DNA from: Mobula hypostoma
Taxonomy: Eukaryota
Length of the DNA: 64,000 nt
Direction of reading: 5' to 3'
NCBI RefSeq assembly: GCF_963921235.1
Contig: NC_086097.1
Span: 1,922,001 to 1,986,000 of the forward strand
This document shows positions 3,834 to 53,159 of this stretch, one piece after another. The position numbers were made by a program, and so were the translations under genes. Under the pieces are notes generated by a model. That model saw only the letters and a program-made list of their open reading frames with translations, was not told the DNA's origin and searched no databases. Within the stretch, counting starts at the first letter, position 1, and every line of letters begins with the position of its first letter.

Positions 3834-4180
3834 GTAGCAATGACTCTGCTGGCATGCATGCTGTTCATTAGATAAAGTTTATTCCATAAAGCTTCCAAAA
3901 GGCACTGAATTTGGATGAGAAACAGACTGAAAAAAAGATTTTAACACTTGTTCCTTTCATGAGATTTTTATTTATTTCATGGCGTTTTTGAAAGGAAAAA
4001 CATGCAGCTCTTCATTTATAACATTTAGTGAAATCAAGGATGCAGTTCACAGTGAGGGCCCTTGTTGCTCAGAGCTGACCATGGATATTGTTCTTAGCTG
4101 TCTAAATATGCAAGCCTGGGCAGGACGATGTGGAGAGCAGCTTCCTAACTTTTGAGCTCAGTGTCTCAACTCATAAAGGT

Positions 4181-4476
4181 CAGCCTGCCGTATACCTTCT
4201 TAATAACCCCATCAGCCTGCCGTATACCTTCTTAATAACCCCATCAGCCTGCCGTATACCTTCTTAATCACCCCATCAGCCTGCCGTATACCTTCTTAAT
4301 AACCCTATCAGCCCACCGTATACCTTCTTAATCACCCTATCAGCCCACCGTATACCTTCTTAATCACCCCATCGGCCTGCTGTATACCTTCTTAATCACC
4401 CCATCAGCCTGCTGTATACCTTCTTAATCACCCTATCAGCCTGCCGTATACCTTCTTAATCACCCTATCAGCCTGC
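4181..4476. repeat. 32-bp minisatellite, about 9 copies
   Basis: Unit CAGCCTGCCGTATACCTTCTTAATCACCCCAT; continues into minus-strand CR1 sequence to ~4590. Confidence 0.9.
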
Positions 4477-6992: not shown

Positions 6993-7440
6993 GAAGCTGA
7001 AATGGACAAAAGCGTTTTTATTTTGTGTCCATTTGCTTTCCAAGCAATTAAGAGAGGAAAGATTAAATATGTAAATCCAAGCATAAAGTATGAAGACTTA
7101 TATAAGTAGTTAATTCTCATATTATTTGTGTCTGTACCTTAAGCGTCAATCGTTATATAAAAAAGCACAAAAATCACACGATGGATTTTGTTTATGTCGC
7201 ACACTTTGCTCAGCAGAATAAATACAGATTTCATTGGCTGGTGCAGTCATGCTTTCTAAAACTTGTAATGGTGACAAGTGGTATTTTATCATTATGCCAT
7301 AGCACATAGAGGCAAATGTTTTTTTTTCTTGTAACAGTTTAAAACAAACTTCATTGATTGTGATTAGGGAGAATTTGTCTGTGATGCAGAGAAGTACAAT
7401 AGGATAGAAATTTGTCCTTGGCAGCACATAGCAAAAGTAC

Positions 7441-7980
7441 CACACATCAAAGTTGCTGGTGAACGCAGCAGGCCAAGCAGCATCTCTAGGAAGAGGTGCA
7501 GTTGACGTTTCAGGCCGAGACCCTTCGTCAGGAAGTCTCTAACTTCCGCTAAGGCCCCACCTCCCCCTCGTACCCCATCTGTTACTCATTTTTATGCACA
7601 CATTCTTTCTCTCACTCTCCTTTTTCTCCCTCTGTCCCTCTGAATATACCTCTTGCCCATCCTCTGGGTCACCCACCCCCCCGTCTTTCTTCCCGGACCT
7701 CCTGTCCCATGATCCTCTCGTATCCCCTTTTGCCTATCACCTGTCCAGCTCTCGGCTCTATCCCTCCCCCTCCTGTCTTCTCCTATCATTTTGGATCTTC
7801 CCCCTCCCCCTCCAACTTTCATATCCCTTACTCACTCTTCCTTCAGTTAGTCCTGACGAAGGGTCTCGGCCTGAAACGTCGACTGCACCTCTTCCTACAG
7901 ATGCTGCTTGGCCTGCTGCGTTCACCAGCAACTTTGATGTGTGTTGCTTGAATTTCCAGCATCTGCAAAATTCCTGTTGT
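7441..7980 (+). mobile_element. Penelope-like element 3' fragment with an inverted partial repeat at its 5' end
   Basis: 12-bp TSD TAGCAAAAGTAC (7429-7440, 7981-7992); 7536-7980 nearly identical to the region downstream of the GIY-YIG ORF at ~50710-51160; 7441-7533 is an inverted copy of part of it. Confidence 0.88.
7848..7885 (+). ncRNA. Minimal type I hammerhead ribozyme motif (Penelope-associated)
   Basis: AGTC-CTGACGA-AGGgtctcggCCT-GAAAC-GTC-GACT: both core boxes, stems I and II, palindromic ACGT stem III, GUC cleavage triplet. Confidence 0.8.
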
Positions 7981-8275
7981 TAGCAAAAGTACGATCACAT
8001 TGGTTCTCCATCTCTGAAACTCAATTCCACTGGAAATCTGCAGTAGAGTACAGTTCCCAGCTGTGAATATATAGTTACCATACATAATTGAGGATGTGTT
8101 TCTAATCCTTGGACTGAAGTAGTGTACTGTCCATGACAGCTGACATGCAGAACATCTGCACTGAACCTTTCATTGTGTTTGTGGAATTCCACCAGAGTTC
8201 ACCCTTGTCCCAGTTTCACCTCTTATTTCTTTATTCTCAACTCATGATGTTTGTATCTCTCGTTTAAAATTAATA

Positions 8276-9497: not shown

Positions 9498-9701
9498 AGT
9501 GAATTTGCAGCTCGCCTCAGTAAGATAGAGTGTGAGCGTCAAAGTCTCGCAGAAGCGCTGACAGCAGCTGAGAGAAAGGCGATTGAAGAGAAGAGGAGGG
9601 CAGAAGATCACCAGCAGCAGCTCAAACTTGCCAAGACCAGCCTGGATTCTGCTAAACAGGAACTGGTGGAGTACAAGCAAAAGGCCTCCCGAATCCTGCA
9701 A
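9498..9701 (+). CDS. GOLGA5: GOLGA5 exon (SEFAARLSKIECERQSLAE...YKQKASRILQ)
   Basis: ttctttctgttcag|...CAA|gtgagg, 204 bp, phase 0/0. Confidence 0.95.
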
Positions 9702-9859
9702 GTGAGGACAAAGTTATGAAGAAGTACAACAAACTTGTATATTTAGCTAAGTAATGTCAAATGGATAATTTATTATGTGGAACGTACTTTGAGCCACGAG
9801 GGTCCCAACTCAGCAATGGAGACAAATTACAGCCTATAAACATATACAACACATAATAG

Positions 9860-11190
9860 CATAACATAGAGCACTACAACATAGCAACAGGCTCTCTGCT
9901 CCACACCAAGTATTAACCTGTCTAGTCCCATCGACCTGCACCCAGGCCATAGCCCTCCAAACCCCTCCCTTCCATGTACTTCAACATAGAAAACCTACAG
10001 CACGATACAGTCCCTTCAGCCCACAAAGCTGTGCCGAACATGTCCCCACCTTAGAACTACCTAGGCTTACCCATAGCCCTCTATTTTTCTAAACTCCATG
10101 TAGCCATCCAGGAGTCTCTGAAAAGACCCTATTGTATCCACCTCCACCACAGTCACTGGCATCCCATTCCACGCGCTCACCACTCTCTGCGTAAAAAAAC
10201 TTACCCCTGATATCTACTCTGTACCTACTTCCAAGCATCTTAAAACTGTGCTCTCTCGAGTTAGCCATTTCAGCCCTGTGAAAAAGCCTCTGACTATCCA
10301 CACGATCAATGCCTCTCATCATCTTCTACACATTTGTACTAAATATTGAGATTAGCACTGCTTCCACAACTGGCAGCTTGTTCCATACTTTCACCACCCT
10401 CTAAATGACCAAGTTCCCCATGTGTTCTCCTTAAGCATTTCACCTTTCACCCTTAAACCCATGATATTTGCATTTACCCTATCTATACTCCACATAATTC
10501 TGTATACCCCTATCGAATCTCCCTCATTCTGTTATGTTTCTGTACTCCACATAATTCTGTATACCCCTATCGAATCTCCCTCATTCTGTTATGTTTCTGT
10601 ACTCCACATAATTCTGTATACCCCTATCGAATCTCCCTCATTCTGTTATGTTTCCGTACTCCACATAATTCTGTATACCCCTGTCAAATCTCCCTCATTG
10701 TGTTATGTTTCCGTACTCCACATAATTCTGTATACCCCTGTCGAATCTCCCTCATTGTGTTATGTTTCCGTACTCCACATAATTCTGTATACCCCTGTCG
10801 AATCTCCCTCATTGTGTTATGTTTCCGTACTCCACATAATTCTGTATACCCCTGTCGAATCTCCCTCATTGTGTTATGTTTCCGTACTCCACATAATTCT
10901 GTATACCCCTGTCGAATCTCCCTCATTGTGTTATGTTTCCGTACTCCACATAATTCTGTATACCCCTATCGAATCTCCCTCATTGTGTTATGTTTCCGTA
11001 CTCCACATAATTCTGTATACCCCTATCGAATCTCCCTCATTGTGTTATGTTTCCGTACTCCACATAATTCTGTATACCCCTATCGAATCTCCCTCATTCT
11101 CCTGTGTTTCAGGGAATGGAACCCTAACCCTAATCAATGTTTCCCTATAACTCAGGCCCTCAGGTCCCGACAACATCCTTGTCATTTTTT
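9860..11190 (-). mobile_element. Nested CR1 3' fragments hosting a minisatellite
   Basis: MMRGIDRVDSQRLF (10089..10322); aacatag tails. Confidence 0.75.
10484..11110. repeat. 57-bp minisatellite, about 11 copies
   Basis: Unit GTACTCCACATAATTCTGTATACCCCT(A/G)TCGAATCTCCCTCATT(C/G)TGTTATGTTTC(C/T); gives 19-aa periodic ORFs. Confidence 0.92.
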
Positions 11191-11709
11191 TTAGATGTGT
11201 AATTTGTGATGATCACTTTGGGAATAAGGAGTTAGAGTGCTCTATGGCTCGAAAGCATTGAGGTAGAGTAGAAAGTATTTAGAGAGCCTGGAATTGCTCT
11301 TGGAGAGGGTGATGAACAGTTATCCAACTAATCAAAAATCCCGATGGTTCAGCATCTGGCTCACTGCTCGGAGCATTGGAGTTTGCAGTTCAATTCTGGC
11401 ATCCCCTTTGAGAAGGCGGGTTAGCTCCCACAAGTTAAAGACGTACCAGTTAATAGGTTTGCAAATTGTCCTGTGATTAGACTGGGTTGCTGGGTGGCGC
11501 GGGTTGAAGGACCGCAAGGGTCTGTTCCACACTGCATGTCTAAATAAGTAAATAAAATTGTACCTGGCCCTCTCCGGCTTCTCTCACTGGGGCTCCCATT
11601 CCTGTGTTCCATTCAAATGACCAGATTCATTTGTGTAACATCTTCAATAAAGCTGAATTAAAAGTGAAGCATCTTACTGTCTAAAACATAGGCTAGTTCA
11701 GCACCACCG

Positions 11710-13295
11710 AAGTCCCTGGCCAGATGGTCTGCATCCCAGAATGCTTAAGGAAGTAGCCCAAGAAATAGTGGATGCATTAGTGATAATTTTTCAAAACTTG
11801 TTAGATTCTGGACTAGTTCCTGAGGATTGGAGGGTGGCTAATGTAACCCCACTTTTTAAAAAAGGAGGGAGAGAGAAATCGGGGAATTATAGACCAGTTA
11901 GCCTAACGTCGGTGGTGGGGAAAATGCTAGAGTCAGTTATCAAAGATGTGATAACAGCACATTTGGAAAGCGGTGAAATCATCGGACAAAGTCAGCATGG
12001 ATTTGTGAAAGGAAAATCATGTCTGACGAATCTCATAGAATTTTTTGAGGATGTAACTAGTAGAGTGGATAGGGGAGAACCAGTGGATGTGGTATATTTG
12101 GATTTTCAAAAGGCTTTTGACAAGGTCCCACACAGGAGATTAGTGTGCAAACTTAAAGCACACGGTATTGTGGGTAAGGTATTGATGTGGATGGAGAATT
12201 GGTTAGCAGACAGGAAGAAAAGAGTGGGAATAAACGGAACCTTTTCAGAATGGCAGGCGGTGACTAGTGGGGTACCGCAAGGCTCAGTGCTGGGACCCCA
12301 GTTGTTTACAATATATATTAATGACTTGGATGAGGGAAGTAAATGCAGCATCTCCAAGTTTGCGGAGGACACAAAGCTGGGTGGCAGTGTTAGCTGTGAG
12401 GAGGATGCTAAGAGGATGCAGAGTGACTTGGATAGGTTGGGTGAGTGGGCAAATTCATGGCAGATGCAATTTAATGTGGATAAATGTGAAGTTATCCATT
12501 TTGGTGGCAAAAATAGGAAAACAGATTATTATCTGAATGGTGGCCGATTAGGAAAAGGGGAGGTGCAACGAGACCTGGGTGTCATTATACACCAGTCATT
12601 GAAAGTGGGCATGCAGGTACAGCAGGCGGTGAAAAAGGCAAATGATATGCTGGCATTTATAGCAAGAGGATTCGAGTACAGGAGCAGGGAGGTACTACTG
12701 CAGTTGTACAAGGCCTTGGTGAGACCACACCTGGAGTATTGTGTGCAGTTTTGGTCCCCTAATCTGAGGAAAGACATCCTTGCCATAGAGGGAGTACAAA
12801 GAAGGTTCACCAGATTGATTCCTGGGATGGCAGGACTTTCATATGAAGAAAGACTGAATGAACTAGGCTTGTACTCGTTGGAATTTAGAAGATTGAGGGG
12901 GAATCTGATTGAAACGTATAAAATCCTAACGGGATTGGACAGGCTAGATGCCGGAAGATTGTTCCCGATGTTGGGGAAGTCCAGAACGAGGGGTCACAGT
13001 TTGAGGATAAAGGGGAAGCCTTTTAGGACTGTGATTAGGAAAAAATTCTTCACACAGAGAGTGGTGAATCTGTGGAATTCTCTGCCACAGGAAACAGTTG
13101 AGGCCAGTTCATTGGCTATATTTAAGAGGGAGTTAGATATGGCCCTTGTGGCTACGGGGGTCCGGGGTATGGAGGGAAGGCTGGGGCAGGGTTCTGAGTT
13201 GGATGATCAGCCATGATCATAATAAATGGCGGTGCAGGCTCGAAGGGCCGAATGGCCTACTCCACCTATTTTCTATGTTTCTATGTTTCTATGTT
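11710..13295 (+). mobile_element. 5'-truncated young CR1 LINE with an open RT frame (491 aa)
   Basis: ORF 11741..13216; catalytic motif reads FAED; (TTCTATGT)n tail. Confidence 0.93.
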
Positions 13296-13392
13296 AACAG
13301 AATGTTGCTGTTAGAGGGCAGAACTGAACAACAGCATTAGGCTCCTTTGAACTACTTTCACAGGGGGGGACACAAACTTTCATTTAAACTTT

Positions 13393-13644
13393 AAACAACA
13401 GGAATTCTGCAGATGCTGGAAATTCAAGCAACATACATCAAAGTTGCTGGTGAACGCAGCAGGCCAAGCAGCATCTATAGGAAGAGGCGCAGTCGACGTT
13501 TCAGGCTGAGACCCTTCGTCAGGACTAACTGAAGCCTTCAGTTAGTCCTGACGAAGGGTCTCGGCCTGAAACGTCGACTGCGCCTCTTCCTATAGATGCT
13601 GCTTGGCCTGCTGCGTTCACCAGCAACTTGGATGTATGTTGCTT
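13393..13644. mobile_element. Palindromic Penelope-like terminal-repeat insertion
   Basis: 109-bp inverted arms around 13535; flanking duplication TTCATTTAAACTTTAA at 13379-13394 and 13643-13658, overlapping the element ends by microhomology. Confidence 0.9.
13543..13580 (+). ncRNA. Hammerhead ribozyme motif, right arm of the palindrome (mirror copy on - at ~13490-13527)
   Basis: Same sequence as 7848-7885. Confidence 0.78.
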
Positions 13645-14544
13645 CATTTAAACTTTAATGTTTTTCACTGGTGCATTGCAATACTGGAATGTGGTCACTA
13701 GGTGGCAAGAATGAGCTTTATTTGATAGTTTTTAATTTTAATTGAGTAATTTTTGTATTTACCTTATCCCATCATGAGATGCTTTTGCAACTTCCCGGCA
13801 GAAAATGCCAATTTTAGATTAGACTCCTAAATATACAGTCAAGGTGTTTTAATTTGATATTATGTTTGAAAGGAGATTTGATAGAAGTACACAAAATTAT
13901 GAGGGGGCATAGATAGGGTAAATGCAAGCAGGTTTTTTTCCACTAAAGTTGGGTGGGACTACCCTATGGATTATGGGTTAAGGGTGAAAGGTGAAATCTT
14001 TAAAGTTCAAAGTAAGTTTATTATCACAGTACAACCCTGAGATTTGTTTTCTTGCGTACATACTCATTAATCCAAGAAAGGTAATAGAATCAGTGAAAGA
14101 CTGCACCCAACGGGAACGTGAGGGGAACTTGTTCACTTGGAGGATGTTGAGGGTGTGGAATGAGCTGCCAGCGCAGTTGGTGGTTGCAGAGTCAATTTCA
14201 ACGTTTAAGAGAAATTTGGATAGGCACATGGATTGGAGGGGTATGGAGGGCTATGGAATGGGAATAGCCAGATTAGTAGTTCAGGAAGGAAAGGCATATT
14301 TCTGTGCTGGAGTGTTCCATGACTAATGAATGGTTCACGTTGAGTAGGATGTCAAAATTGCATCAAAGAGGAGCAAGTGTAGTCCAGGTGATCCCCAGAT
14401 TACAGCTGTTTGGGTGTCAGAAATTTGCTTTAGAGTTCACAAACCACTACCCAAACTCTGCCCTTACAGTTCTGTGTGTGGAGGAAAATCATTTGTAGAC
14501 CATTTTCTTGAAAGCAATTCCCCCTCCCATAACATGGGTTTGCC

Positions 14545-15470
14545 AGTTGTTGACGAACTTGTATTGATGTGCAGTGAGGACTGAATAGACTGGTTGCATC
14601 ATGACCTGGTATGGAAACTCTAAAGCCTTTGAACAGAAAATCCTACAAAACGTACTGGATTTGGCCCAGTACCTCACGGGTAAAGCCCTCTCAACCTTTG
14701 AGCACATCTACATGAAATGCTGTCGAAGAAAAGCAGCATCCATCGTCAGAGACCCTCCCCACCCAGGCCATGCTCTTTTCTCACTGCTGCCATCAGGTAG
14801 AAGATACAGGAGCCTCAGGACACACCACCCGGTTACTATCCCACAACCATCAGGCTCTTGAACAAAAGAGGATAATGACACTCATCTATTGAGATGTTCC
14901 CACAACCAGTGATCTCACTTTAAGGCCTCTTTATCTTGTTATTTCATGCTCTCGTTTTTTATTGCGATTTATTTATGTTTGCATTTGCAGTTTGTTCTCT
15001 TCTATGGTCTTGCTCTTTCATTGATCCTGTTTACAGTTACTGTTCTATCGATTTGCTGAGTACTAAGAGGAATAGATAGAGTGGATAGTCAGCGCCTCTT
15101 CCCAGGGCACTACTGCTCAATACAAGAGGACATGGCTTTAAGGTAAGGGGTGGGAAGTTCAAGGGGGATATTAGTGGACGGTTTTTTACTCAGAGAGTGG
15201 TTGGTGCGTGGAATGCACTGCCTGAGTCAGTGGTGGAGGCAGATACACTAGTGAAGTTTGAGAGACTACTAGACAGGTATATGGAGGAATCTAAGGTGGG
15301 GGCTTATATGGGAGGCAGGGTTTGAGGGTCGGCACAACAGTGTGGGCCGAAGGGCCTGTACTGTGCTGTGCTATTCTATGTTCTATGTAAGCTCATAGGA
15401 AAAAGAATCTCAGGGTTGTCTGTGGTGACATGTATACACTGTGATAATAAATTGTACTTTGAACTTTCAA
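14545..15470 (+). mobile_element. L2/Rex-like LINE 3' fragment interrupted by a CR1 tail (15063-15387)
   Basis: HPGHALFSLLPSGRRYRSLRT motif; (tttgaac)n-like tail resumes at ~15455. Confidence 0.7.
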
Positions 15471-15583
15471 CAATGCAGGTGTCAATAGGCCTATATAAGG
15501 AATATTCATCGTTTTTCTCTGTTACCATACCAAAATTATTTAACACAAACTTGTTATCAAATCTTTATGCTGTTCTTCCACAG

Positions 15584-15754
15584 TCCAAAGAGAAACTGAT
15601 TAACAGCCTAAAGGAGGGTTCAGGGATTGAAGGTATTGAGAGCCATGCGATTAGCACACTGGAGCTGGAGGAGGTGCGGCATGAACGTGACATGCAGCGG
15701 GAAGAGATCCAGAGACTGTTGGGTCAGATCCAATCACTGAGGACAGAACTGCAG
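15584..15754 (+). CDS. GOLGA5: GOLGA5 exon (SKEKLINSLKEGSGIEG...SLRTELQ)
   Basis: ttcttccacag|...CAG|gtaggt, 171 bp; lies inside ORF 15368..15781. Confidence 0.95.
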
Positions 15755-15919: not shown

Positions 15920-17250
15920 GAGTTGGGAGCAGAAATAGGCCATTCGGCCTTTCATTCTATCGTGGCTGATTTATTATTCCTCTCAACCCCATTATCCTGC
16001 CTTCTCCCCGTATCCTTTGATGCCCTGACTAACAATAAACTATCAACCTCTGCTTTATATATGCCCAGTGATTTGATCTCCACAGCTGTCTGTGGCAATG
16101 AGATTCACCACCCTCTGGCTGAAGAATTTCATATTGATAGAACACCCACACCACAGGAGTAAGCTCTTCGACCCATCAAGTCCAAGCCTAGTCCCATGGA
16201 CTTGCACCCTGACCATCGCCTTCCACACCTCTCCCATCCAAATTTCCCTTAAATGTTAAAATCAATGCGCATCCATCACTCACACTGGCTGCTTGTTCTG
16301 CAATGTCAGCACCCTCTGAGAGAAGAAGTTGCCCCTCATGTTCCCTGTAAACTCTTCACCTTTCACCCTTAACCCATGAACACTGTCTACTCTGGCTCTC
16401 TGGTTCCCATCCCCCTGCAACTCTAGTTTAACACTCCCCCCAACCCTGCCAGTGCAGCATTAGCAAACCTTCCACTGGGATATTAGTAATCTCTCTTCAG
16501 CTGAGGTGCTAACCATCTTTTCTGTACAGGTTTACAGTTCCACCTTCCCTGGAAGAGAGCCCAATGATCCAAAAATCTACAGCCCCCTCTCCTGCACCAA
16601 CTTCTTAGCTACGTGCTAAACTGTTTGATCTTCCTGTTTCCTTTTATATTCTTTTCCTCTAGAAACGAATGCTAATGTTGCATTTGGCTTCGTCACCACC
16701 AGTTCAACCTGCAAGTTAACCTTTAAGGAATCCTGCACAAGGATCCCAAAGTCCCTCTGTACCTCTGATTCTTGAACTTTCTCCCCATTCGGGAAATAGT
16801 TTACGTCTCTATTCCTTCTACCAAAGTGCATGATCAAACATCTCCCTACACTCTTTTCCATCTATCACTTTACCCTGTCTTTCAATCTGTCCAAATCTTT
16901 CTGCAGACTTCCTACTTCCTCAGCACTACCTACCTCATTCACCTTTCTTCGTATTGTCCCAACGAAGAATCGGTCCCAACACGGATCCCTGTGGATCATC
17001 TTTCTTCGTGTTGTCCCAACGAAGAATCGGTCCCAACACGGATCACTGTGGATCACCTTTCTTCGTGTTGTCCCAACGAAGAATCGGTCCCAACACGGAT
17101 CACTGTGGATCACCTTTCTTCGTGTTGGCCCAACGAAGAATCGGTCCTAACACGGATCCCTGTGGATCACCTCTCTTCGTATTGTCCCAACGAAGAATCG
17201 GTCCCAACACGGATCCCTGTGGAACACCACTAGTCACGGGCAGCTCCCTT
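15920..17250 (-). mobile_element. Mosaic of degenerate CR1 fragments
   Basis: MHFGRRN..VQDSLKVNLQV (16616..16861); GVPQG region at ~17200-17240. Confidence 0.7.
16942..17222. repeat. 57-bp minisatellite, about 5 copies
   Basis: Unit CTTTCTTCGTGTTGTCCCAACGAAGAATCGGTCCCAACACGGATC(A/C)CTGTGGATCAC. Confidence 0.9.
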
Positions 17251-17492
17251 TGTTCCCACTCTTTGCCTCATATCTGTGGTTCGACGTTTGGATGGGGTTT
17301 TAAATGGGAGCCCAGCGTTCTATTGAAAGATTGTTGGGAGACTTCCGGTAGCGCTCATGGAGTGAAGTCGCGTTCTTGACTCGCTCCATTACCTCTGAGT
17401 TTTTTCTCTCTATGGTCAGCTATACTTTAATTAACTATTAAGGCATCAATTTTTACAATACTTTGAATTAAACTGAATTCTCTGACAATTGG

Positions 17493-18392
17493 ATGATACT
17501 GAGATCGGCTATGTCTAAGAACGGGAAAGACGGCAAGGATGGTAAACCTCCGGTTAAACCGAAAGCTACGGATCTCCCTCCGACTGAATCACCGGTGACT
17601 TTGAAAGCGATATCGGAGTTAATTCAGAGGGAAATTTCAACCTCTGTTAGGGAGATGATTCGTACAGAAATTATGGGCTTTGTTAAAGACCTGATTCATA
17701 CGGAAATCTCAACTAAGTTCCAGAAAATTGCCGATTTAATTGATAAGATGCAAACATGTATTGCGGAACATCAGTCGGCTATATCTGATCTTCAAAAATC
17801 CGCGCAACAAGGTGAGCTTAAGATGGGGAAAATCGAAGAAACAATTAATGTAATGAAGAAGAAACTTGACTTTTTGACTTTTAAAAACTCTGACTTGGAA
17901 TCTAGAATGCGACGGCAGAATTTACGAATGATTGGCGTCAGGGAAGCCGTGGAAGCTAACAACCCTATGAAATATTTCTCCCAACTTTTAAAAGATGCAT
18001 TCCCTACTGTATTTCCTGACCAACCACCGCTACTGGATCGTGTTCACAGAATCCCATCATACTCGTCTAGGTCAGATAGACCTAGGCATGTTATCTTACG
18101 TTTTCATTACTTTCAAGACAAGGAGAGACTGTTTCGATTCGCTCGATCTAAAGGTTTCATTGATTTTTCGGATCTTAAGTTCCGATTTGTGGAAGATTTC
18201 AGTAAACCAATCTGGGACCAACGGGTCCGTTACAGATCCGTGATGTCGGAATTCTATAAGATGGATTTAAGACCAGCGCTGCTGTACCCTGCACGTCTAA
18301 GGATTCGCATGTTAGATGGAGCCCTTCGTTTTTTTGATTCTCCATCGGATGCCCAGAGTTATCTGGATCAACTTTCATCCTCAACATCTTAA
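17493..18392 (+). CDS. L1 ORF1p (coiled coil plus RRM/CTD)
   Basis: DLESRMRRQNLRMIG, LDRVHR, PRHVILRF, LLYPARLRI motifs typical of L1 ORF1p; start may be the ATG at 17511. Confidence 0.9.
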   Translation: MILRSAMSKNGKDGKDGKPPVKPKATDLPPTESPVTLKAISELIQREISTSVREMIRTEIMGFVKDLIHTEISTKFQKIADLIDKMQTCIAEHQSAISDLQKSAQQGELKMGKIEETINVMKKKLDFLTFKNSDLESRMRRQNLRMIGVREAVEANNPMKYFSQLLKDAFPTVFPDQPPLLDRVHRIPSYSSRSDRPRHVILRFHYFQDKERLFRFARSKGFIDFSDLKFRFVEDFSKPIWDQRVRYRSVMSEFYKMDLRPALLYPARLRIRMLDGALRFFDSPSDAQSYLDQLSSSTS

Positions 18393-19114
18393 TTGCCTTT
18401 TTTTAATTTTCTCCGTTGATCGGAGGCTGTGAATTGGTTGGTTTTAACTTTTCTGTGCCCTATTTGGGCAGAAAAGTTTACTTTCGATTTCTTAATATGG
18501 CTGCTAAACTTTCTTTTTAACTGCGTCATTTCTTTCTTTTCTCAGGGGATTCTGGGTGGTTACTTCCCTTTTGTCATCTTACGTATTTCCTGTGCGGCCT
18601 TAAATTTTGTAGTTTTTTTTAAATTTTATTCTGTTTTGCTTTTTATAATCATTTTATGTTAATAATCCTATTTTTTTTTGTTGCTGTGTCTATTCATGAG
18701 TTTGAGGTTTATTGTGGTTTTTTTTTAATATATACTTTCCGGCTTTTGTTCTGTTCTGTGTGTATTTTAATTGAGCTAACTTTTTTTTTACTTATTTTTT
18801 TACTGTTTTACAATTAGCTGATCCTTTTCATATTTATACCTTTTTTTTAGGGAGCGTATACCGGAAGTCATGGGGGTAGTTTTAGCGCTTGCTTCTTTCT
18901 GGCGGGTCTGCTTTAGATTTCGCCTTGGGGTCTTGGGGTGGGGGGTGGTGGGAGGGGCTTCACGTTTTAGTTCGTTTCTCTTTGGGCTATATACATTATT
19001 GAAGTATTGGTTGCGTCCTTTTCCCCGGTATCTTTTGTATGTTCTGTTTCCTCTCCGGGTTTGTGGGTCGCGCCTATTGTCAATCCTCCTTCTTGTGGGT
19101 TGACTTTAGGATTT

Positions 19115-22100
19115 ATGGAGTCTATTATTAATTTTGTCTCCTGGAATACTAATGGTCTTAATCATCCTATTAAAAGAAAAAAAGTTTTTAAAGTGTTCCG
19201 GAGACTTAAAGCACAAATTTTATTTTTACAAGAGACCCATGTACGGAGGGGGGACAGACTACGTTTTTTTAAATTCTGGAAGGGACAACAATTTCATTCG
19301 AACTCCAATGCTAAGATTCGAGGCGTCTCTATTTTTATAGACTCCTCAGTTACTTTTATACAACAAGATATTATCTCTGATCCGAATGGTAGATTTTTAT
19401 TGGTTAGTGGTTTACTATTTAATAAAAAAGTAGTTTTGGTTAATGTTTATGCTCCTAATATGGATTGTCCGGAATTTTATAAATCATTGTTTGATCAGTT
19501 TCCGAATTTGAACGAGTTTTCATTGATTTGGGGCGGAGATCTTAATACCTGTTTATTTCCAGCTTTGGACCGTTCGGCTCCTTTACGGACTTTACCTAAT
19601 AAATCTGCAAATTTGATTAATTTTTTCCTTTCTGATTCTGGGTCGACGGACATTTGGCGTTTTCTGCATCCTCAGGAAAAAGATTTTTCCTTCTTTTCAC
19701 ATGTTCATCATTCCTATTCAAGAATTGATTATTTTTTCATTGATTCTCGTCTCATTCCTTCAGTGATTAAATGTGATTATGATTCTATAACCATTTCGGA
19801 TCATGCTCCACTTAAGCTTTCTATTAAAATTATGGCCAATATACCAAACAATAGACAATGGCGTTTTAATTCGCTGTTGCTTCAGGACTCGGACTTTGTT
19901 AATTTTATGAATGAACAGATTGAGCTTTTTTTTACAATTAACCATACAGAAGATATTTCGGTTAACACTCTTTGGGACACTTTTAAAGCCTATATTCGGG
20001 GTCAGATTATTTCGTATTCCGTTGCTTTGAGGAAGAAACAGAAGCAGGAGGAGATGGCAATTGTGGACAAGATTAAAGAAATTGATAAGAAATATGTTAT
20101 GGCTCCTTCTGAGGAGCTATACAAACAAAGAACTGAACTTCAAATGGAACACAGTTTACTACTCTCGTCCTCGATTGTAAACCAATTAAAGAAAACAAGA
20201 AGTGATTTTTATGTTCACAGTGATAAAATTGGCAAGCTGCTGGCTAATCAATTGAAATCTAATTATGTTAAATCTCAAATCAATCAGATTTATAACCAAA
20301 ATGATCGATTGATATTGGATCATGTGGGGATTAATCAAACCTTTTGTGATTTTTATTCTTCTTTATATCAATCAGAGTCTCCTCGAGATTCTAAATATAT
20401 GAATGATTTTTTAGATAAGTTAGACTTCCCTCAGATTTCACAGGATATGTCTTCTTTATTAGATACTTCCATTACAATGGATGAGATTAAGAATGTTATT
20501 TTTTCTATGAATCTGGGGAAAGCTCCTGGCCCTGATGGGTTTACCGTTGAATTTTATAAATGTTTTGCTTCTTTATTGATTCCTTGGCTCTATAAGGTTT
20601 TTGAGGCTTCTTTGAAACTTGGTAAACTTCCGGAATCTTTTAATAGAGCATCAATTTCTTTAATACTAAAGAAGGATAAAGACCCTGCTCAATGTGCATC
20701 TTATAGACCAATATCTTTATTAAATGTTGATTCTAAAGTTTTTTCTAAGTTATTAGCAAATAGACTAGAAAAAGTACTTCCTTCTATTATTTCGGAAGAC
20801 CAAACGGGTTTTATTAAAGGTCGTTACTCTTTTTATAATATTCGTACATTGTTAAATATCGTTTATACTCCCTCACAAAATGTTCCTGAGTGTGTTATTT
20901 CTTTAGATGCCGAGAAAGCTTTTGATAGAGTAGAATGGCCTTATTTATTTAAGGTGCTTGAAATGTTTAATTTTAGCTTGAAATTTATATCCTGGATTAA
21001 ACTGTTATATCACTCCCCTGTAGCCTCGGTTCGTACTAACTCCTTAAACTCACCTTTTTTTCCTCTCTTTCGTGGTACTCGACAAGGCTGTCCTCTTAGT
21101 CCCCTATTATTTGATATTGCATTAGAACCTCTTGCAATTGCTATTCGAGAATCTTTAAATATTACTGGGATAACTCGGGGATTAAAGTCCCATAAATTAT
21201 CACTTTATGCTGATGATTTACTTTTATATATTTCTAATCCTGAGAGATCCATTCCTGCTGTTTTAGAGTTATTAGCACAATTTGGTCTTTTCTCAGGTTA
21301 TAAATTAAATCTTAGTAAGAGTGAACTTTTTCCGATTAATAAACATCTTCCCTTATATTATAAATTTCCATTTAAATTGATTAATAATTACTTTTCATAT
21401 CTTGGGATTAAAATTACTTGTAAACATAAAGATTTATTTAAGACTAACTTTTTACCATTAATAGACCATATTACTCAACTTTCATCTAAATGGTTTCCCT
21501 TATATTTAACTTTGATTGGTCGTATTAATGCAGTTAAGATGTTTTTTTTGCCAAAATTTTTATATGTGTTTCAGGCATTACCAATTTTCGTTCCTAAATC
21601 TTTTTTTGATAAAGTTGACTCTAAAATTTCTTCATTTATTTGGCAGAATAAGAATCCGAGACTGGGTAAAATACATTTACAGAAAGCTAAGAGAGATGGA
21701 GGTTTAGCATTACCTAACTTTAGATTTTATTATTGGGCTATTAATATTCGACATATGAAATTTTGGTTACTTGACCGGGACATACTATCTATTCCTAAAT
21801 GGGTAGCATTGGAATTACAATCTGTTCAGGGTTATACACTTGGTTCTATTTTAGGTTCCTCTCTTCCTTTTGATTCGAAACGCCTTAAGCAGGTCTCTAA
21901 CCCGATAGTTAAATATGCTTTGCGCATTTGGTTTCAATTCAGAAAATTTTTTGATCTTAATCAATTCGGGTTAGCGATTCCTATTTTAGGTAACATATTT
22001 TTTCCTCCCTCTTTTACGGATCGCGCTTTTCAAACTTGGAAGACTAAGGGTATTTTACGGTTTTTGGATTTATTTTTAGATGGTTCCCTTATGTCTTTTG

Positions 22101-22891
22101 AACAATTATCTAATAAATATAACTTATCAAGAATACATTTTTTTAGATATTTACAAGTTAGAAATTTCCTAAGTACTATACTTTCTTCCTTTCCAATGCT
22201 TCCTCCTATATATATTTTAGATTCGATAATTAACCTTAATCCATGTCAGAAAGGTGCATCGGCTATGATTTATAATATTATTATGAAACTTAGGAAAGCT
22301 CCATTTGATAAGATTAGGGTAGATTGGGAACAGGAATTGGGGCTTACCATTTCTGTGGATGATTGGGGGCAGATTTTACAATTAGTTAATACTTCCTCTA
22401 TTTGTGCTAAACATTCCCTAATTCAATTTAAAGTGGTTCATAGAGCACATATGTCCAAAGATAAGTTAGCGCGTTTTTACTCGCATATTAATCCTTTCTG
22501 TGATAGATGTTCGGGGCAGATAGCCTCTTTAACTCATATGTTTTGGTCTTGCCCTACTTTGGAAACTTTTTGGAGAGATATTTTCAATATTATTTCTAAG
22601 GTATTAAATATAGATATCTCTCCTCACCCTATTACTGCTATCTTTGGACTACCTAAAATTTCTAGTAATCTTTCCCCTTCAGCCCGTAGAATGATTGCAT
22701 TTCTTACTTTAATGGCGAAAAGATGTATTTTACAACATTGGAAAGAACTTAATGCTCCAACTACCTTTTTTTGGTTTTCTCAGACGATTTTATGTTTGAA
22801 TCTGGAGAAAATTAGAAGTAACCTTTATGATTCTTCATTTAAATTTGAACAGATTTGGGGACCTTTTATTCGATATTTTCATTTAATGTAA
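19115..22891 (+). CDS. L1 ORF2p: APE endonuclease, reverse transcriptase and C-terminal CCHC (1258 aa from first ATG)
   Basis: SWNTNGL, LQETH, GGDLN, SRIDY, SDH (endonuclease); GKAPGPDG, YRPISLL, GTRQGCPLSP, YADD (RT); CDRC..HMFWSC. Confidence 0.95.
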   Translation: MESIINFVSWNTNGLNHPIKRKKVFKVFRRLKAQILFLQETHVRRGDRLRFFKFWKGQQFHSNSNAKIRGVSIFIDSSVTFIQQDIISDPNGRFLLVSGLLFNKKVVLVNVYAPNMDCPEFYKSLFDQFPNLNEFSLIWGGDLNTCLFPALDRSAPLRTLPNKSANLINFFLSDSGSTDIWRFLHPQEKDFSFFSHVHHSYSRIDYFFIDSRLIPSVIKCDYDSITISDHAPLKLSIKIMANIPNNRQWRFNSLLLQDSDFVNFMNEQIELFFTINHTEDISVNTLWDTFKAYIRGQIISYSVALRKKQKQEEMAIVDKIKEIDKKYVMAPSEELYKQRTELQMEHSLLLSSSIVNQLKKTRSDFYVHSDKIGKLLANQLKSNYVKSQINQIYNQNDRLILDHVGINQTFCDFYSSLYQSESPRDSKYMNDFLDKLDFPQISQDMSSLLDTSITMDEIKNVIFSMNLGKAPGPDGFTVEFYKCFASLLIPWLYKVFEASLKLGKLPESFNRASISLILKKDKDPAQCASYRPISLLNVDSKVFSKLLANRLEKVLPSIISEDQTGFIKGRYSFYNIRTLLNIVYTPSQNVPECVISLDAEKAFDRVEWPYLFKVLEMFNFSLKFISWIKLLYHSPVASVRTNSLNSPFFPLFRGTRQGCPLSPLLFDIALEPLAIAIRESLNITGITRGLKSHKLSLYADDLLLYISNPERSIPAVLELLAQFGLFSGYKLNLSKSELFPINKHLPLYYKFPFKLINNYFSYLGIKITCKHKDLFKTNFLPLIDHITQLSSKWFPLYLTLIGRINAVKMFFLPKFLYVFQALPIFVPKSFFDKVDSKISSFIWQNKNPRLGKIHLQKAKRDGGLALPNFRFYYWAINIRHMKFWLLDRDILSIPKWVALELQSVQGYTLGSILGSSLPFDSKRLKQVSNPIVKYALRIWFQFRKFFDLNQFGLAIPILGNIFFPPSFTDRAFQTWKTKGILRFLDLFLDGSLMSFEQLSNKYNLSRIHFFRYLQVRNFLSTILSSFPMLPPIYILDSIINLNPCQKGASAMIYNIIMKLRKAPFDKIRVDWEQELGLTISVDDWGQILQLVNTSSICAKHSLIQFKVVHRAHMSKDKLARFYSHINPFCDRCSGQIASLTHMFWSCPTLETFWRDIFNIISKVLNIDISPHPITAIFGLPKISSNLSPSARRMIAFLTLMAKRCILQHWKELNAPTTFFWFSQTILCLNLEKIRSNLYDSSFKFEQIWGPFIRYFHLM

Positions 22892-23432: not shown

Positions 23433-23637
23433 CAGCGGTCCCAACCTCGTTTATGCCCTGGACTCCTGCCGTTAACCAAAGGGTCCATCGACCCTAGGCT
23501 GGGAAGGCTGCCGTTAACCGAAGGGTCCATGGACCCTCGGCTGGGAACACTGCCGTTAACCGAAGGGTCCGTGGACCCTAGGCTGGGAACCCTGCCGTTA
23601 ACCGAAGCGTCCATGGACCCTAGGCTGGGAACCCCTG
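23433..23637. mobile_element. Small hAT (Buster-type) MITE with an internal 42-bp x4 tandem amplification
   Basis: TIRs CAGCGGTCCCAACC and GGCTGGGAACCCCTG; 8-bp TSD ATCT(G/A)GAT at 23425-23432 and 23638-23645. Confidence 0.82.
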
Positions 23638-28265: not shown

Positions 28266-28983
28266 AAACCAAGGAGATATCTTCCTCCTTCAAAGAAAGG
28301 GGGTTCCCTTCCTTCACCATCAATGCTGCTGTCACCTGCATCTCTTCCATTTCGCACACATCTACCCTCACGCCATCCTCCTCCCATCTCACCAGGGATA
28401 CGGTTCCTCTTTTCCTCACCTACCACCCCACCAACCTCCGCATCCAGTACGTAATTCTCTGAAACTTCCACCATCTTCAACAGGATCCCACCACCAAGCA
28501 CATCCTTCCCTCCCCTCCACTTTCTGCTTTCCTTAGGGATTGCTTCCTATGTAACTCCCTTGTCCATTCGTCCCTCCCCACTGATCTCCCTCCTGGCACT
28601 TACCCTTGCAAGCAGAACAAGTGCTACACCTGCCCCTACACCTCCTTCCTCACCACCATTCAGGGTCCCAAACAGTCCTTCCAAGAGAGGCGACACTTCA
28701 CCCGTGAGCCTGTTGGGGTCATCTACTGAATCCGGTGCTTCCTGAATATCCATGAGACCCGAGGTCGATTGGGAGTCCGTGTTGCCGAGCATCTGTGCTC
28801 CGTCCGCCAGAAAAAGCAGGATTTCCCAGTGGCCACCCATTTTCATTTCTCTTCCTGTTCCCATTTGAACATGTTCGTTCACGGCCACCTCTACTGCTGC
28901 GATGAGGCCACACTCAGGTTGGAGGAGCAGCTTTATGTTCTGTCTGGGTTGCCACCAACTTGATGGCATGAACATCGATTTCT
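28266..28983 (+). mobile_element. Older Penelope-like GIY-YIG fragment nested in CR1
   Basis: Clearly homologous to 50073-50720 but diverged and frameshifted; interrupts CR1 NYRPV, with TA(G/A)GCCA at both junctions. Confidence 0.8.
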
Positions 28984-36919: not shown

Positions 36920-37160
36920 GTATGCAGGTAGTCATTGCTTTCATTTTCTTGCCTCTGGGGTTCTTGACTGGTGGGTGGCATGTTTCTTCAGATTCACATG
37001 AACTTTATTTGTCACAAGTACATCGAAACAGTGTCAAGTATTGTTTGCATCAAATCAGATCAGTGGCGATTGTGCTGGGCATCCCGTAAGTGTCGCTATG
37101 CTTCCGGCAGCAGCGTAGCGAATGTACAACGTGCGTTGGAATGTGGGAGGAAGCCAGCGA

Positions 37161-38197
37161 GATCACAGAGAGACCGTACAAAGTCCTTACAGTGCGATCA
37201 CAGAGAGACCGTACAAAGTCCTTACAGTGCGATCACAGAGAGACCGTACAAAGTCCTTACAGTGCGATCACAGAGAGACCATACAGAGTCCTTACAGTGA
37301 GATCACAGAGAGACCATACAGAGTCCTTACAGTGAGATCACAGAGAGACCGTACAAAGTCCTTACAGTGCGATCACAGAGAGACCGTACAAAGTCCTTAC
37401 AGTGCGATCACAGAGAGACCGTACAAAGTCCTTACAGTGCGATCACAGAGAGACCATACAGAGTCCTTACAGTGAGATCACAGAGAGACCGTACAAACTC
37501 CTTACAGCCTGATCACAGAGAGTCCGTACAAAGTCCTTACAGCCTGATCACAGAGAGTCCGTACAAAGTCCTTACAGCCTGATCACAGAGAGTCCGTACA
37601 AAGTCCTTACAGCCTGATCACAGAGAGTCCGTACAAAGTCCTTACAGTGAGATCACAGAGAGACCGTACAAAGTCCTTACAGCCTGATCACAGAGAGACC
37701 GTACAAAGTCCTTACAGCGCGATCACAGAGAGACCGTACAAAGTCCTCACAGTGAGATCACAGAGAGACCGTACAAACTCCTTACAGCCTGATCACAGAG
37801 AGTCCGTACAAAGTCCTTACAGCCTGATCACAGAGAGTCCGTACAAAGTCCTTACAGCCTGATCACAGAGAGACCGTACAAAGTCCTTACAGCCTGATCA
37901 CAGAGAGACCGTACAAAGTCCTTACAGCCTGATCACAGAGAGACCGTACAAAGTCCTGACAGCTTGATCACAGAGAGACCATACAAAGTCCTTACAGCGC
38001 GATCACAGAGAGACCGTACAAAGTTCTTACAGTGCGATCACAGAGAGACCGTACAGAGTCCTGACAGCCTGATCACAGAGAGACCATATAAAGTCCTTAC
38101 AGCGCGATCACAGAGAGACCGTACAAAGTTCTTACAGTGCGATCACAGAGAGACCGTACAAGGTCCTTACGGACTGATCACAGAGAGACCACACAAA
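37161..38197. repeat. 35-bp minisatellite, about 29 copies
   Basis: Unit GATCACAGAGAGACCGTACAAAGTCCTTACAG(TGC/TGA/CCT/CGC); embedded in a minus-strand V-SINE-like element (~37120-38270). Confidence 0.93.
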
Positions 38198-39338: not shown

Positions 39339-39888
39339 CAACTGCTCTGTCTACACTGAACCGGGGGGGGGGGGGGTCACACAACTGCTCTGTCTACACT
39401 GAACCGGGGGGGGGTGACACAACAACTGTTCTGTCTACACTGAACCGGGGGGGGGGTCACACAACTGCTCTGTCTACACTGAACCGGGGGGGGGGGGTGA
39501 CACAACAACTGTTCTGTCTACACTGAACCGGGGGGGGTGACACAACAACTGCTCTGTCTACACTGAACCGGGGGGGGGGGGTGACACAACAACTGCTCTG
39601 TCTACACTGAACTGGGGGGGGGGGTCACACAACAACTGCTCTGTCTTTACTGAACCGGCGGGGGGGTCACACAACAACTGCTCTGTCTACACTGAACCGG
39701 GGGCGGGGGGGGGTCACACAACTGCTCTGTCTACACTGAACCGGGGGGGGGGGGTGACACAACAACTGTTCTGTCTACACTGAACCGGGGGCGGGCAGGG
39801 GGGGTCACACAACTGCTCTGTCTACACTGAACCGGGGGGGGGGGTCACACAACTGCTCTGTCTACACTGAACCGGGGGGGTCACACAA
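39339..39888. repeat. ~38-46-bp minisatellite with a variable poly-G tract, about 13 copies
   Basis: Unit ACAACTGCTCTGTCTACACTGAACC(G)nT(C/G)ACAC. Confidence 0.92.
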
Positions 39889-41074
39889 CCACAAATGTTC
39901 CAACTACACCGAACTCTTCATCGATGTTCCTGCTGCTGATGTCACACTGAATGAAATGGAGATTGAAAAATCTGATCTGAAAATGCAGCTGCATAAACCA
40001 CAGGCTGATGTGTTCACCCTCGGTGTTGGCTCCCAAGAAGTCTGAAGGATTCCCGTCAGGCCGTGTTGTGTCAACTCTCTTCATGGTCTGTCTGTCTGAG
40101 TGAATGATGAGTTATTCTCTTGAGCTGCTGACTGAAGGCAAAGATGAGAGTGAGATAAATTCTAAATACTCTTTATAAATATCACTCTTTTATTGCAGTC
40201 TTGCTAAGCCGAGGGTTAGAACATAGAGCATCGAACAGTCCAGCACAGAAACAAGCCCCTCGGCCCAACCAAACAACTTAATTAGTGATCAAATGGCCAA
40301 TTAAACTGATCCCTTCTGCCTACACAATCTCGATATCCCTCCATTTCCCTCACGTTCATGTACCTATCTAAACATCTCTTAAAAGCCTCTGTGTATCTGC
40401 CTCTACCCCACCCCGGCAGTGTATTCCAGGCACCTCACTACTCTCCGTTTGTAAAAACATTACTCCTCAGATCTCCTTTGAGGTTACCCTCTCTGACCTT
40501 TAATGCATGCCCTCTGATATTATAACTTTTTAGCCTGGGAAAAAAAGTACTGTCTGTCTACTCTCTGCCTTTCATAATCTTTTAAACTTCCATCAAATCT
40601 TCCCTCAGCCTGTTAGTAGCTATATGTCCATTCTGGTCTCTGTTTCCCAGCATTCTGCACTGAAGGACACGGGAAATGAGGTTGTCCTGCACAGCAACAT
40701 TTCGGCATAGCTGCACAGGTGTAGTCTGTTATTAGTTATAAATTGACAAGTGTTTGAAACTGGGGAATTCAATACTAATGATCCTGAAGTGCTGTGATAT
40801 TATATTGTTCAGCGTACCAACACACAATGCTCTGGAATTCATTACTGAGGAAGGTACAACTGGTGAGAGAAGTTCTGTTTGTCTCCACGTTTGGACAGTT
40901 GAGTGTGAGGAAGGATAAAGTCTGTTCTGACTAAAATCTACCCTGCCGATTACCTGCTCATTGCAGACAGGTTCAGTCACTTTTTGTTTGGACTCACAGT
41001 GCTGGCTACTAACTTAAAGGAAAAAAATGTGAGTTTAAATCTGTATTAAAATCACAATACAGAACTCAATTTAG

Positions 41075-50072: not shown

Positions 50073-51163
50073 CTGCTGTCACTCCATCCTCCCGCCACCC
50101 CACTAGGAATAGGGTTCCCCTGGTCCTCACCTACCACCCCACCAGCCTCCGGGTCCAACATATTATTCTCCGTAACTTCCGCCACCTCCAATGGGATCCC
50201 ACCACTAAGCACATCTTTCCCTCCCCCCCCCTGCATCCGCAGGGATCGCTCCCTACACAACTCCCTTGTCCATTCGTCCCCCCCATCCCTCCCCACTGAT
50301 CTCCCTCCTGGCACTTATCCGTGTAAGCGGAACAAGTGCTACACACGCCCTTACACTTCCTCCCTTACCACCATTCAGGGCCCCAAACAGTCCTTCCAGG
50401 TGAGGCAACACTTCACCTGTGAGTCGACTGGGGTGATATACTGCGTCCGGTGCTCCCGATGTGGCCTTTTATATATTAGCGAGACCCGACGCAGACTGGG
50501 AGACCGCTTTGCTGAACATCTACGCTCTGTCCGCCAGAGAAAGCAGGATCTCCCAGTGGCCACACATTTTAATTCCACATCCCATTCCCATTCTGACATG
50601 TCTATCCACGGCCTCCTCTACTGTAAAGATGAAGCCACACTCAGGTTGGAGGAACAACGCCTTATATTCCGTCTGGGTAGCCTCCAACCTGATGACATGA
50701 ACATCGACTTCTCTAACTTCCGCTAAGGCCCCACCTCCCCCTCGTACCCCATCTGTTACTCATTTTTATGCACACATTCTTTCTCTCACTCTCCTTTTTC
50801 TCCCTCTGACCCTCTGAATACACCTCTTGCCCATCCTCTGGGTCCCTCCCCCCCTTGTCTTTCTTCCCGGACCTCCTGTCCCATGATCCTCTCGTATCCC
50901 CTTTTGCTTATCACCTGTCCAGCTCTTGGCTCCATCCCTTCCCGTCCTGTCTTCTCCTATCATTTTGGATCTCCCCCTCCCCCTCCCCCTCCAACTTTCA
51001 AATCCCTTACTCACTCTTCCTTCAGTTAGTCCTGACGAAGGGTCTCGGCCTGAAACGTCGACTGCACCTCTTCTTACAGATGCTGCTTGGCCTGCTGCGT
51101 TCACCAGCAATTTTGATGTGTGTTGCTTGAATTTCCAGCATCTGCAGAATTCCTGTTGTTTGC
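50073..51163 (+). mobile_element. 5'-truncated Penelope-like element (GIY-YIG endonuclease end plus 3' repeat) nested in CR1
   Basis: PCKRNKC..HFTCESTGVIYCVRCSRCGLLYISETRRRLGDRFAEH; TSD GTACAAA(G/A)TAAAT at 50060-50072 and 51164-51176. Confidence 0.9.
51027..51064 (+). ncRNA. Hammerhead ribozyme motif downstream of the GIY-YIG ORF
   Basis: Same core; sense to the Penelope ORF, about 300 nt after its stop. Confidence 0.8.
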
Positions 51164-53012: not shown

Positions 53013-53159
53013 AACAACAGGAATTCTGCAGATGCTGGAAATTCAAGCAACACACATCAAAGTTGCTGGTGAACGCAGCAGGCCAAGCAGCATCTATAGG
53101 AAGAGGCGCAGTCGACGTTTCAGGCCGAGACCCTTCGTCAGGACTAACTGAAGGAAGAG
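53013..53159 (-). mobile_element. 147-bp Penelope-like 3' terminal insertion nested in CR1
   Basis: 11-bp TSD AATACTCCAGA at 53002-53012 and 53160-53170; splits the CR1 LEYCVQFW motif. Confidence 0.9.
53109..53146 (-). ncRNA. Hammerhead ribozyme motif
   Basis: Reverse complement of the same core. Confidence 0.78.

Follow-up and report, generated by a model that had tools for sequence, protein, structure and literature searches.

We analysed a 64,000-nt window of the Mobula hypostoma genome (contig NC_086097.1; positions count from its first base), which carries a palindromic insertion at 13379-13658 in an intron of a GOLGA5-like gene. The gene's name rests on the Pfam family Golgin_A5, which matched 6 of the 11 open reading frames (ORFs) scanned, all on the + strand and in profile order, including both ORFs that flank the insertion (upstream E 1.5e-05, alone below the Pfam cut-off; downstream E 1.5e-19). 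With Golgin_A5 exons on both sides, the location in a GOLGA5 intron proposed in a preliminary description of this DNA holds; the insertion sits 3.7 kb from the splice donor and 1.9 kb from the acceptor. Arm starts are given throughout in an element coordinate, X = 13536, and the element is a Penelope-like retrotransposon (PLE) whose hammerhead-bearing 3' end is the pLTR. The features are as follows.

7429-7992, no strand assigned: second insertion of the same family and layout, with a 12-nt duplication, ~5.4 kb upstream of the palindrome
9702-15583, + strand: host intron of the GOLGA5-like gene, 5,882 nt, with GT/AG ends, between exons 9498-9701 and 15584-15754
13379-13394, + strand: left copy of the target-site duplication, 16 nt, its last 2 nt also matching the element 3' end
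13395-13425, - strand: PLE tail, left arm only, 31 nt (up to 35 with ambiguous bases)
13426-13534, - strand: left arm, the 5'-truncated pLTR piece of the tailed copy, starting at X
13490-13527, - strand: minimal type I hammerhead, antisense in the host pre-mRNA (motif scan), with a loop II change at 13507
13535-13644, + strand: right arm, the tail-less inverted pLTR piece, 110 nt, its last 2 nt common to the duplication
13543-13580, + strand: minimal type I hammerhead, sense in the host pre-mRNA (motif scan, compared with PMC4209133)
13643-13658, + strand: right copy of the target-site duplication, identical to the left one over all 16 nt
50072-51161, + strand: longest family copy in the window, with a broken C-terminal ORF, linker Zn-finger and GIY-YIG
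53002-53170, - strand: solo tailed pLTR piece (53013-53159), starting at X-6, with an 11-nt duplication

Two inverted repeats of 109 nt, 13426-13534 and 13536-13644, form the arms. They have exactly two mismatches, as the preliminary description had counted, at position pairs 13440/13630 and 13507/13563. Among the four inverted-repeat pairs in the window (at least 25 nt, arms within 300 nt), this is the only one above 78%. The same description placed a single base between the arms; the base, C13535, is there, but it is the element's own next base, templated rather than a spacer, so the right arm comprises 110 nt (13535-13644) and its join to the left arm is blunt. In the alignment, the left arm covers X to X+139/141, the 3' end of the element on the - strand, and the right arm spans X-1 to X+106/108 on the + strand; the arm starts lie 1 nt apart, at the 5' edge of the ribozyme. 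The element's tail extends the left arm by 31-35 nt (13393/5-13425/7), and the right arm has none. The central junction shows no native loop, no added letters and no microhomology. Each arm carries one private change, with no compensating change in the other. Two further early claims were borne out: the 16-bp flanking duplication is a perfect repeat (13379-13394 and 13643-13658), and the variant ACATAC occurs in both arms and in none of the five other window copies aligned. When RNA of 13379-13658 was folded computationally, as that description had advised, it gave a hairpin of -226.8 kcal/mol (z = -30.7), a stability reached by 0 of 200 shuffles. An Rfam match to mir-2766 (36.5 bits, gathering threshold 60) was rejected as a reflection of this hairpin.

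Each arm contains one hammerhead motif. In the sense copy, helix I pairs 13543-47 with 13576-80, helix II pairs 13556-59 with 13564-67, the core occupies 13548-54 and 13568-71, helix III is loop-less and palindromic, and standard hammerhead numbering predicts a cut between 13575 and 13576. This cut (13575/6) lies 40 nt from the palindrome's centre, and we rejected the idea that the centre is the cut site. The conserved core, 5-bp helix I, extra base before helix II and palindromic 15.2-16.2 of minimal hammerheads are all present, but a G-U wobble stands in the locus copy in place of G10.1-C11.1; C occupies 13567 in 19-25% of the summed family depth. The minimal hammerheads described for metazoan PLEs have the same core, unpaired base before helix II, 5-bp helix I and loop-less helix III, and the locus differs from them in its 4-bp helix II and its G-U at 10.1-11.1 (PMC4209133). 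Opposite-strand pairs also occur in Schistosoma, where they are 100-700 bp apart (PMC4209133); at the locus only ~15 nt separate them. Rfam hammerhead models gave no match at gathering threshold in the whole window, and no hammerhead family was among the ten Rfam matches at E up to 10 in 13300-13750. An unconstrained fold of the sense motif yielded no active fold (z 0.03), which is expected of a motif that needs a dimer and is neutral evidence. In a Schistosoma example, the minimal hammerhead was inactive as a monomer and weakly active as a dimer (PMC4209133), and PMC6765202 agrees. A 21-nt ribozyme pattern had no match in viral contigs, and two metagenome-contig loci that matched it were set aside as chance matches of only 21-22 nt. 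That the locus holds two back-to-back hammerheads, as first described, is true of the DNA; because the motifs lie on opposite strands, any RNA from the insert carries only one sense copy.

Six other places in the window, among them the right arm, match the left arm together with 31 further bases, and these copies identify the family. The 50072-51161 copy ends at the same 3' end as the palindrome arms. It begins with a broken ORF that stops at 50726; 293 nt rich in pyrimidines come next, followed by hammerhead and tail. Its ORF (50112-50723) encodes a GIY-YIG with two cysteines between GIY and YIG (CCHH motif); the palindromic insert itself contains no ORF. The Pfam GIY-YIG match is weak in this copy (E 0.057), and in the 91% homologue P0001 it reaches E 4.6e-4; in the best three Atlas rows (score 0.96-0.97), GIY-YIG is found on 13%, 56% and 13% of members. 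Longer homologues past E 1e-20 numbered 9 among 1,186 candidates, and seven of the nine were ray proteins of 73-91% identity. Three of the four homologues that were rescanned match GIY-YIG and one, P0009, also RVT_1, all below curated Pfam cut-offs. P0009, 44% identical across 79% of the query, carries RVT_1 (E 9.9e-5) followed by a C-terminal GIY-YIG, and P0001 has a YIDD motif upstream of the GIY-YIG endonuclease. A reverse transcriptase (RT) N-terminal to the endonuclease is found in these two homologues and not in the window, which holds no full-length PLE copy. The linker Zn-finger, CX2-5CxxC, is intact in P0001 and in the copy at 28368-28983, and its last Cys is changed in the 50072 copy. 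That 28368-28983 copy (+ strand) is an older, broken PLE endonuclease region, 78% identical to the one at 50072. The ray models P0003, P0004 and P0007, named as isoforms of mucin-2, divergent protein kinase domain 1C and chitinase domain protein 1, include the PLE endonuclease region, through exonisation or annotation error.

A linker Zn-finger combined with such GIY-YIG features characterizes Neptune and Nematis PLEs (PMC8557442). We are therefore nearly certain that the unit is an insertion of a Neptune/Nematis-type Penelope-like retrotransposon, and the linker Zn-finger and endonuclease features suggest Neptune or Nematis as its clade. By endonuclease, layout, tail and duplication it belongs to the endonuclease-bearing (EN+) PLEs. 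The palindrome is the 3' end (pLTR) of the element, present as two head-to-head 5'-truncated pieces with a tail on one side only. In the part of one ray-genome preprint that was accessible, Penelope is mentioned nowhere.

This structure is a known product of the PLE class, ordinary except for its unusual symmetry. PLEs are laid out with an inverted 5'-truncated copy by the 5' end and a 30-40-bp tail that is often at one end only (PMC8557442); Adineta PLEs have a 31-bp tail, palindromes at inverted junctions and a usual head-to-head arrangement (PMC3846280); and Penelope of D. virilis has inverted terminal repeats and a 34-bp repeat (PMC2377424). The locus shares with EN+ PLEs (Adineta Pen2a, Pen2 and Pen3, and D. 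virilis Penelope) the head-to-head truncated copy, the one-end tail and the duplication, as well as a palindrome at the inverted junction and a pLTR hammerhead (PMC3846280, PMC2377424, PMC8557442). It differs from them in that the ORF is wholly lost, the arms start 1 nt apart and the whole insert is palindromic. Its arms measure 109 bp, compared with 18 and 38 bp at Adineta pLTR 5' ends, and duplications in the two inverted-arm insertions of the window measure 12-16 bp, compared with 8-10 bp in the Adineta cases (PMC3846280). The Anolis Poseidon element PAc likewise has a tail of ~30-40 nt, an AT-rich target and a pLTR hammerhead (PMC11167929). It belongs to a different clade, Penelope/Poseidon, which has no linker Zn-finger (PMC8557442), and the accessible part of the PAc study leaves inverted arms unexplained (PMC11167929). 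The literature, as far as it was accessible, still calls the origin of the PLE inverted-arm structure undefined.

Non-LTR retrozymes are likewise short, non-coding and PLE-related, with a type I hammerhead (bioRxiv 10.64898/2026.07.22.740005). As described there, they form direct tandem repeats with a ribozyme per unit, whereas the locus is an inverted pair without a sense partner in cis. We rejected a retrozyme identity because the arms are inverted and not in direct tandem; the 23 array rows of the window include no tandem array within 13379-13658. In L1 twin priming, a second nick primes synthesis and a non-overlapping upstream part becomes inverted at the 5' end; the locus differs in holding the same 110 nt twice. 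Inverted-Alu pairs resemble the locus in that inverted repeat copies give intronic dsRNA.

The window contains a second insertion with the same layout. At 7429-7992, a tail-less inverted arm (7441-7533) is followed by two extra letters and a tailed arm (7536-7980, tail 37 nt); these arms start at X+10 and X-305, 315 nt apart, without microhomology. Lying one intron upstream of the palindrome, it is predicted to fold into a 99-bp duplex that closes a loop of ~317 nt. An inverted arm with a one-sided tail is thus present in two of the four well-preserved window insertions (13379-13658 and 7429-7992), and four of the six well-preserved window arms start between X-6 and X+10.

We compared these arms with other copies of the family in Logan contigs of 4 of 24 sequencing runs: X1 and X2 (organism A, one sample, possibly the one behind the window's assembly), X5 (organism B) and X9 (organism A, its run type guessed as RNA). 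Summed contig depth was not taken as copy number. Because the reference is a palindrome, the head-to-head junction of another copy reads as a skip from the left arm to the right arm; arm starts far upstream of X are invisible in the resulting joint tables. One table (table 5; best 15 of 873) gave 9 head-to-head joints after 6 joins between a LINE-like tail and the PLE tail were dropped, and another (table 5c; best 12 of 551) gave 7, one with duplicate coordinates, after 5 of other kinds were set aside. In 13 of the 15 distinct head-to-head joints among these best-listed rows, one arm starts at X+5 to X+23, and the starts of the other arm spread from X+30 to X+119. Against a uniform null this clustering has p ~1e-5, a rough value since the rows were chosen by depth, are non-independent and perhaps include other subfamilies. 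None of the 15 listed joints has exactly the centre seen at the locus, although a copy with the same centre would show no joint; one is nearly symmetric (starts X+65 and X+71) and is the only one of the 15 with starts within 6 nt of each other. The depth at 13535 (1,367 in X1 compared with ~20 on the flanks) was considered as a sign of a shared centre and discarded, as loose-ended contigs suffice to produce it. Inverted joins near the ribozyme edge are thus routine, and we regard the palindrome as their symmetric extreme.

As the likelier origin of the palindrome, we propose end-to-end joining of two cDNAs, one primed at each nick in the target. The RT/GIY-YIG protein would place a nick in each strand of an AT-rich target, with 12-16 nt between them, and each nick would prime one cDNA. 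Synthesis from an outer RT start site would give the tailed arm and synthesis from an inner start site the tail-less arm; both cDNAs would stop at the ribozyme's 5' edge, 1 nt apart, and joining of their 3' ends would leave a head-to-head palindrome between the duplicated target ends. In an anole PLE, the protein nicks AT-rich DNA on both strands and extends each of them, and the tail is the stretch between two RT start sites (PMC11167929); we infer that such two-nick priming may apply to the palindrome junction. In the accessible text of mostly open-access papers, we found neither a two-nick account of PLE inversions nor the wording 'twin priming' for them. Joining of two cDNAs would account for the one-sided tail, the single duplication, the fairly fixed short arm and the variable long arm. 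The clustering of 13 of the 15 listed joints on one arm, with the other arm spread, is what separately ending cDNAs would leave, and the central junction, with neither a native loop nor an added letter nor microhomology, is consistent with it. Several observations sit less easily with this reading: only one of the 15 listed joints has starts within 6 nt, the tail-less arm at X-1 lies 6 nt upstream of the start cluster, no centre-spanning contig is among the matches listed, and the in vitro data come from a Poseidon element of another clade (PMC11167929).

It is possible, though distinctly less probable, that within the same PLE insertion the first arm served by fold-back or self-priming as template for the second, and that resolution by the endonuclease left the tail. 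Arm starts that coincide within 1 nt are more directly explained by such self-copying than by two cDNAs, and PMC3846280 favours self-priming for the junction palindromes that it describes. Microhomology of 2-4 nt, present at 8 of the 9 head-to-head joints listed in table 5, fits fold-back priming equally well, and the deepest listed head-to-head joint (13494 to 13550, depth 289 in X1) falls on a natural 4-nt inverted match inside the ribozyme. Against self-priming, a fold-back requires a native stem as primer and at least 3 nt of loop, neither of which the central junction has; a small natural stem at the centre, which we considered as the primer, would have left its native 8-nt loop, and this is absent. 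The insertion at 7429-7992, with starts 315 nt apart, two extra letters and no microhomology, also fits poorly, and a separate reason would be needed for the copy stopping 31-37 nt short of the target. The ACATAC that both arms share would fit fold-back, but it is not supported as specific evidence of it. The consensus C at 13434 accounts for 81% of summed depth in X1, 80% in X2, 97% in X5 and 88% in X9, so that non-C letters, which the contigs leave unresolved, make up ~19% in organism A and 2.6% in organism B. ACATAC may be a variant of the donor or of a young subfamily in organism A rather than a private error, and for this reason it does not by itself show fold-back. The early proposal of a fold-back or template switch at the ribozyme's 5' edge was right about the edge; pure fold-back, with no loop or microhomology at the centre, persists only as the rival to joining of two cDNAs.

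The arm ends may bear on the RNA that served as template. At the ribozyme's 5' edge lies an acceptor-like site with branch-like motifs at X-11 and X-7; AG is absent from X-98 to X+3, and AGs end at X+5 and X+9. Of the window arms, one starts right after the second AG (X+10) and one a base past the putative branch A (X-6). In the window this acceptor-like site lies at 51009-51029 and 7830-7850 (+ strand), and in the 7.8-kb copy it is sense to the host gene. Each of the five non-head-to-head joints listed in table 5c departs from the sense strand no more than 5 nt from the predicted cut, at 13570-13580, and four of them come back to the ribozyme's 5' edge; such joints could stem from cut RNA ends or from divergence among subfamilies. 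One possible reading of the deepest head-to-head joint also has it start at the predicted cut. The 3' end of the D. virilis Penelope intron maps to helix I (PMC4209133). It is conceivable, if rather doubtful, that ray PLE insertions record RNA ends; a 5' pLTR, spliced or processed, would then be the template of the inverted arm, and the ribozyme would cut in vivo. However, the stretch is 79.5% pyrimidine as background, no strong splice donor occurs within 420 nt upstream of the acceptor-like site, depth decided which of more than 1,400 rows were considered, older subfamilies diverge near the same places, and both palindrome arms start upstream of the AGs. For the anole PLE, ribozyme cutting was unneeded in vitro and, in the accessible part of that study, no RNA-seq reads end at the cut (PMC11167929). 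We treat the clustering of arm ends at the ribozyme edge, the acceptor-like site and the cut as leads rather than results. If true, the RNA-end reading would help to settle the way in which PLEs generate inverted pLTRs. Such junctions across ray genomes could discriminate two-nick priming from self-priming and show whether ribozyme-cut RNA is the template.

Because the host gene is on the + strand, the right arm provides the sense ribozyme in the pre-mRNA, and because the antisense arm is transcribed first, the sense ribozyme would be zipped into the duplex. The 109-bp duplex should form in the pre-mRNA and leave the ribozyme inactive: stem I has a computed probability of 0.11 when the arm stands alone and of 0.0 within the whole insert, a model result that agrees with the masking proposed earlier. 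Any read-through RNA would make the antisense arm first in this way, and masking may explain why such inserts are tolerated in introns; the duplex could also feed silencing RNAs against the family. In Adineta, antisense small RNAs against PLEs are mostly piRNA-sized (PMC3846280), so silencing of such families need not involve Dicer. Editing of the hairpin by ADAR is plausible by analogy. Depth in X9 is 0 in the unique-flank bins 13320-13367 and 13656-13847, which, in a single run of guessed RNA type, is uninformative on expression. A>G rows mix paralogues and were left out of account as a sign of editing. The DNA hairpin, at a computed -144.7 kcal/mol and 52.5% GC, makes a cruciform possible, without thereby implying extrusion.

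Long intronic duplexes are ADAR substrates in vertebrates, and with a 109-bp duplex of about -227 kcal/mol inside the host intron, one could propose that the host has retained the hairpin to regulate GOLGA5, as dsRNA that is edited or diced. We consider this very improbable, because the neighbouring intron holds a similar 99-bp duplex, so that this one is not special, and because the site is empty in organism B (see below), whose flanks differ by only 5/339 nt. The distance from the splice sites (1.9-3.7 kb) and the pattern of one private change per arm with no compensating change also speak against a host role. We regard the insertion as dead and young, and a host role as unlikely. The locus in itself matters little, since PLE stubs are very numerous and a close relative lacks this one; its value is as a clean, dated example, with a known empty site, of the PLE inverted-arm product.

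The reads also bear on whether the insertion is correctly assembled and arose once. In both X1 and X2, contigs with 0 differences cover the left outer junction (13278-13414/5) and the right outer junction (13615-13895). Since both junctions are present, with the element in opposite orientation, a single-arm artefact, which the preliminary description had asked to be checked, is excluded and the two arms are real. Among the 32 matches listed, out of more than 205,942, no contig spans the centre, and none of the matches listed for X1 and X2 is an empty-site contig. As X1 and X2 may derive from the assembled sample, the centre might in principle be an assembly collapse of a longer, asymmetric inverted insertion, but we think this highly unlikely given the two error-free outer junctions in opposite orientation, the two sites at which the arms differ (the one at 13630 inside a confirmed contig) and the 1-nt offset at the junction, which a mirror artefact would not need.

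Organism B carries the empty site. An X5 contig (record 19) runs from 13278-13369 directly into 13643-13900 with 10 letters between, where 9 were expected, at a site that adjoins a G run, and it contains a single 16-mer. An empty site with one 16-mer indicates one recent insertion, and one duplication brackets both arms, in line with the one-insertion origin first suggested. Two independent insertions, or later gene conversion, might be entertained for so abundant a family (75,835-82,626 contigs per organism A run, another repeat included), but are largely refuted, to the point of being barely credible, by the one duplication around both arms, the empty site with neither arm and the tail on one arm only. 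The flanks in organism B differ from the window at 5/339 nt (1.5%), plus indels, and the arms differ from each other at 2/109 (1.8%, 95% range 0.2-6.5%), from which we take the insertion to be young. At 13434, 13467 and 13488, organism A seems to carry the letters of the locus more often than organism B (the other letter at 13488 makes up 62% of summed depth in organism A and 98% in organism B), hinting at a young subfamily burst in organism A.

Several other features of the window were recorded. An apparently intact L1-clade LINE occupies 17472-22888 (+ strand) in a GOLGA5 intron, within a low-GC block, and has stop-free frames of 306 aa (Transposase_22, E 9e-10) and 1,306 aa (endonuclease, RVT_1 and zf-RVT). 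A LINE-like 3' fragment at 11902-13295, putatively of CR1/L2 type, has an 8-nt tandem tail, ends 84 nt before the target-site duplication and is 95.8% like 56408-57797; in reads, tails of that LINE are joined directly to the PLE tail (at least 6 rows). Two unrelated minisatellites, at 10486-11098 and 16939-17228, both have a 57-nt period, and further arrays lie at 4180-4476, 23465-23634, 37155-38197 and 39339-39895.
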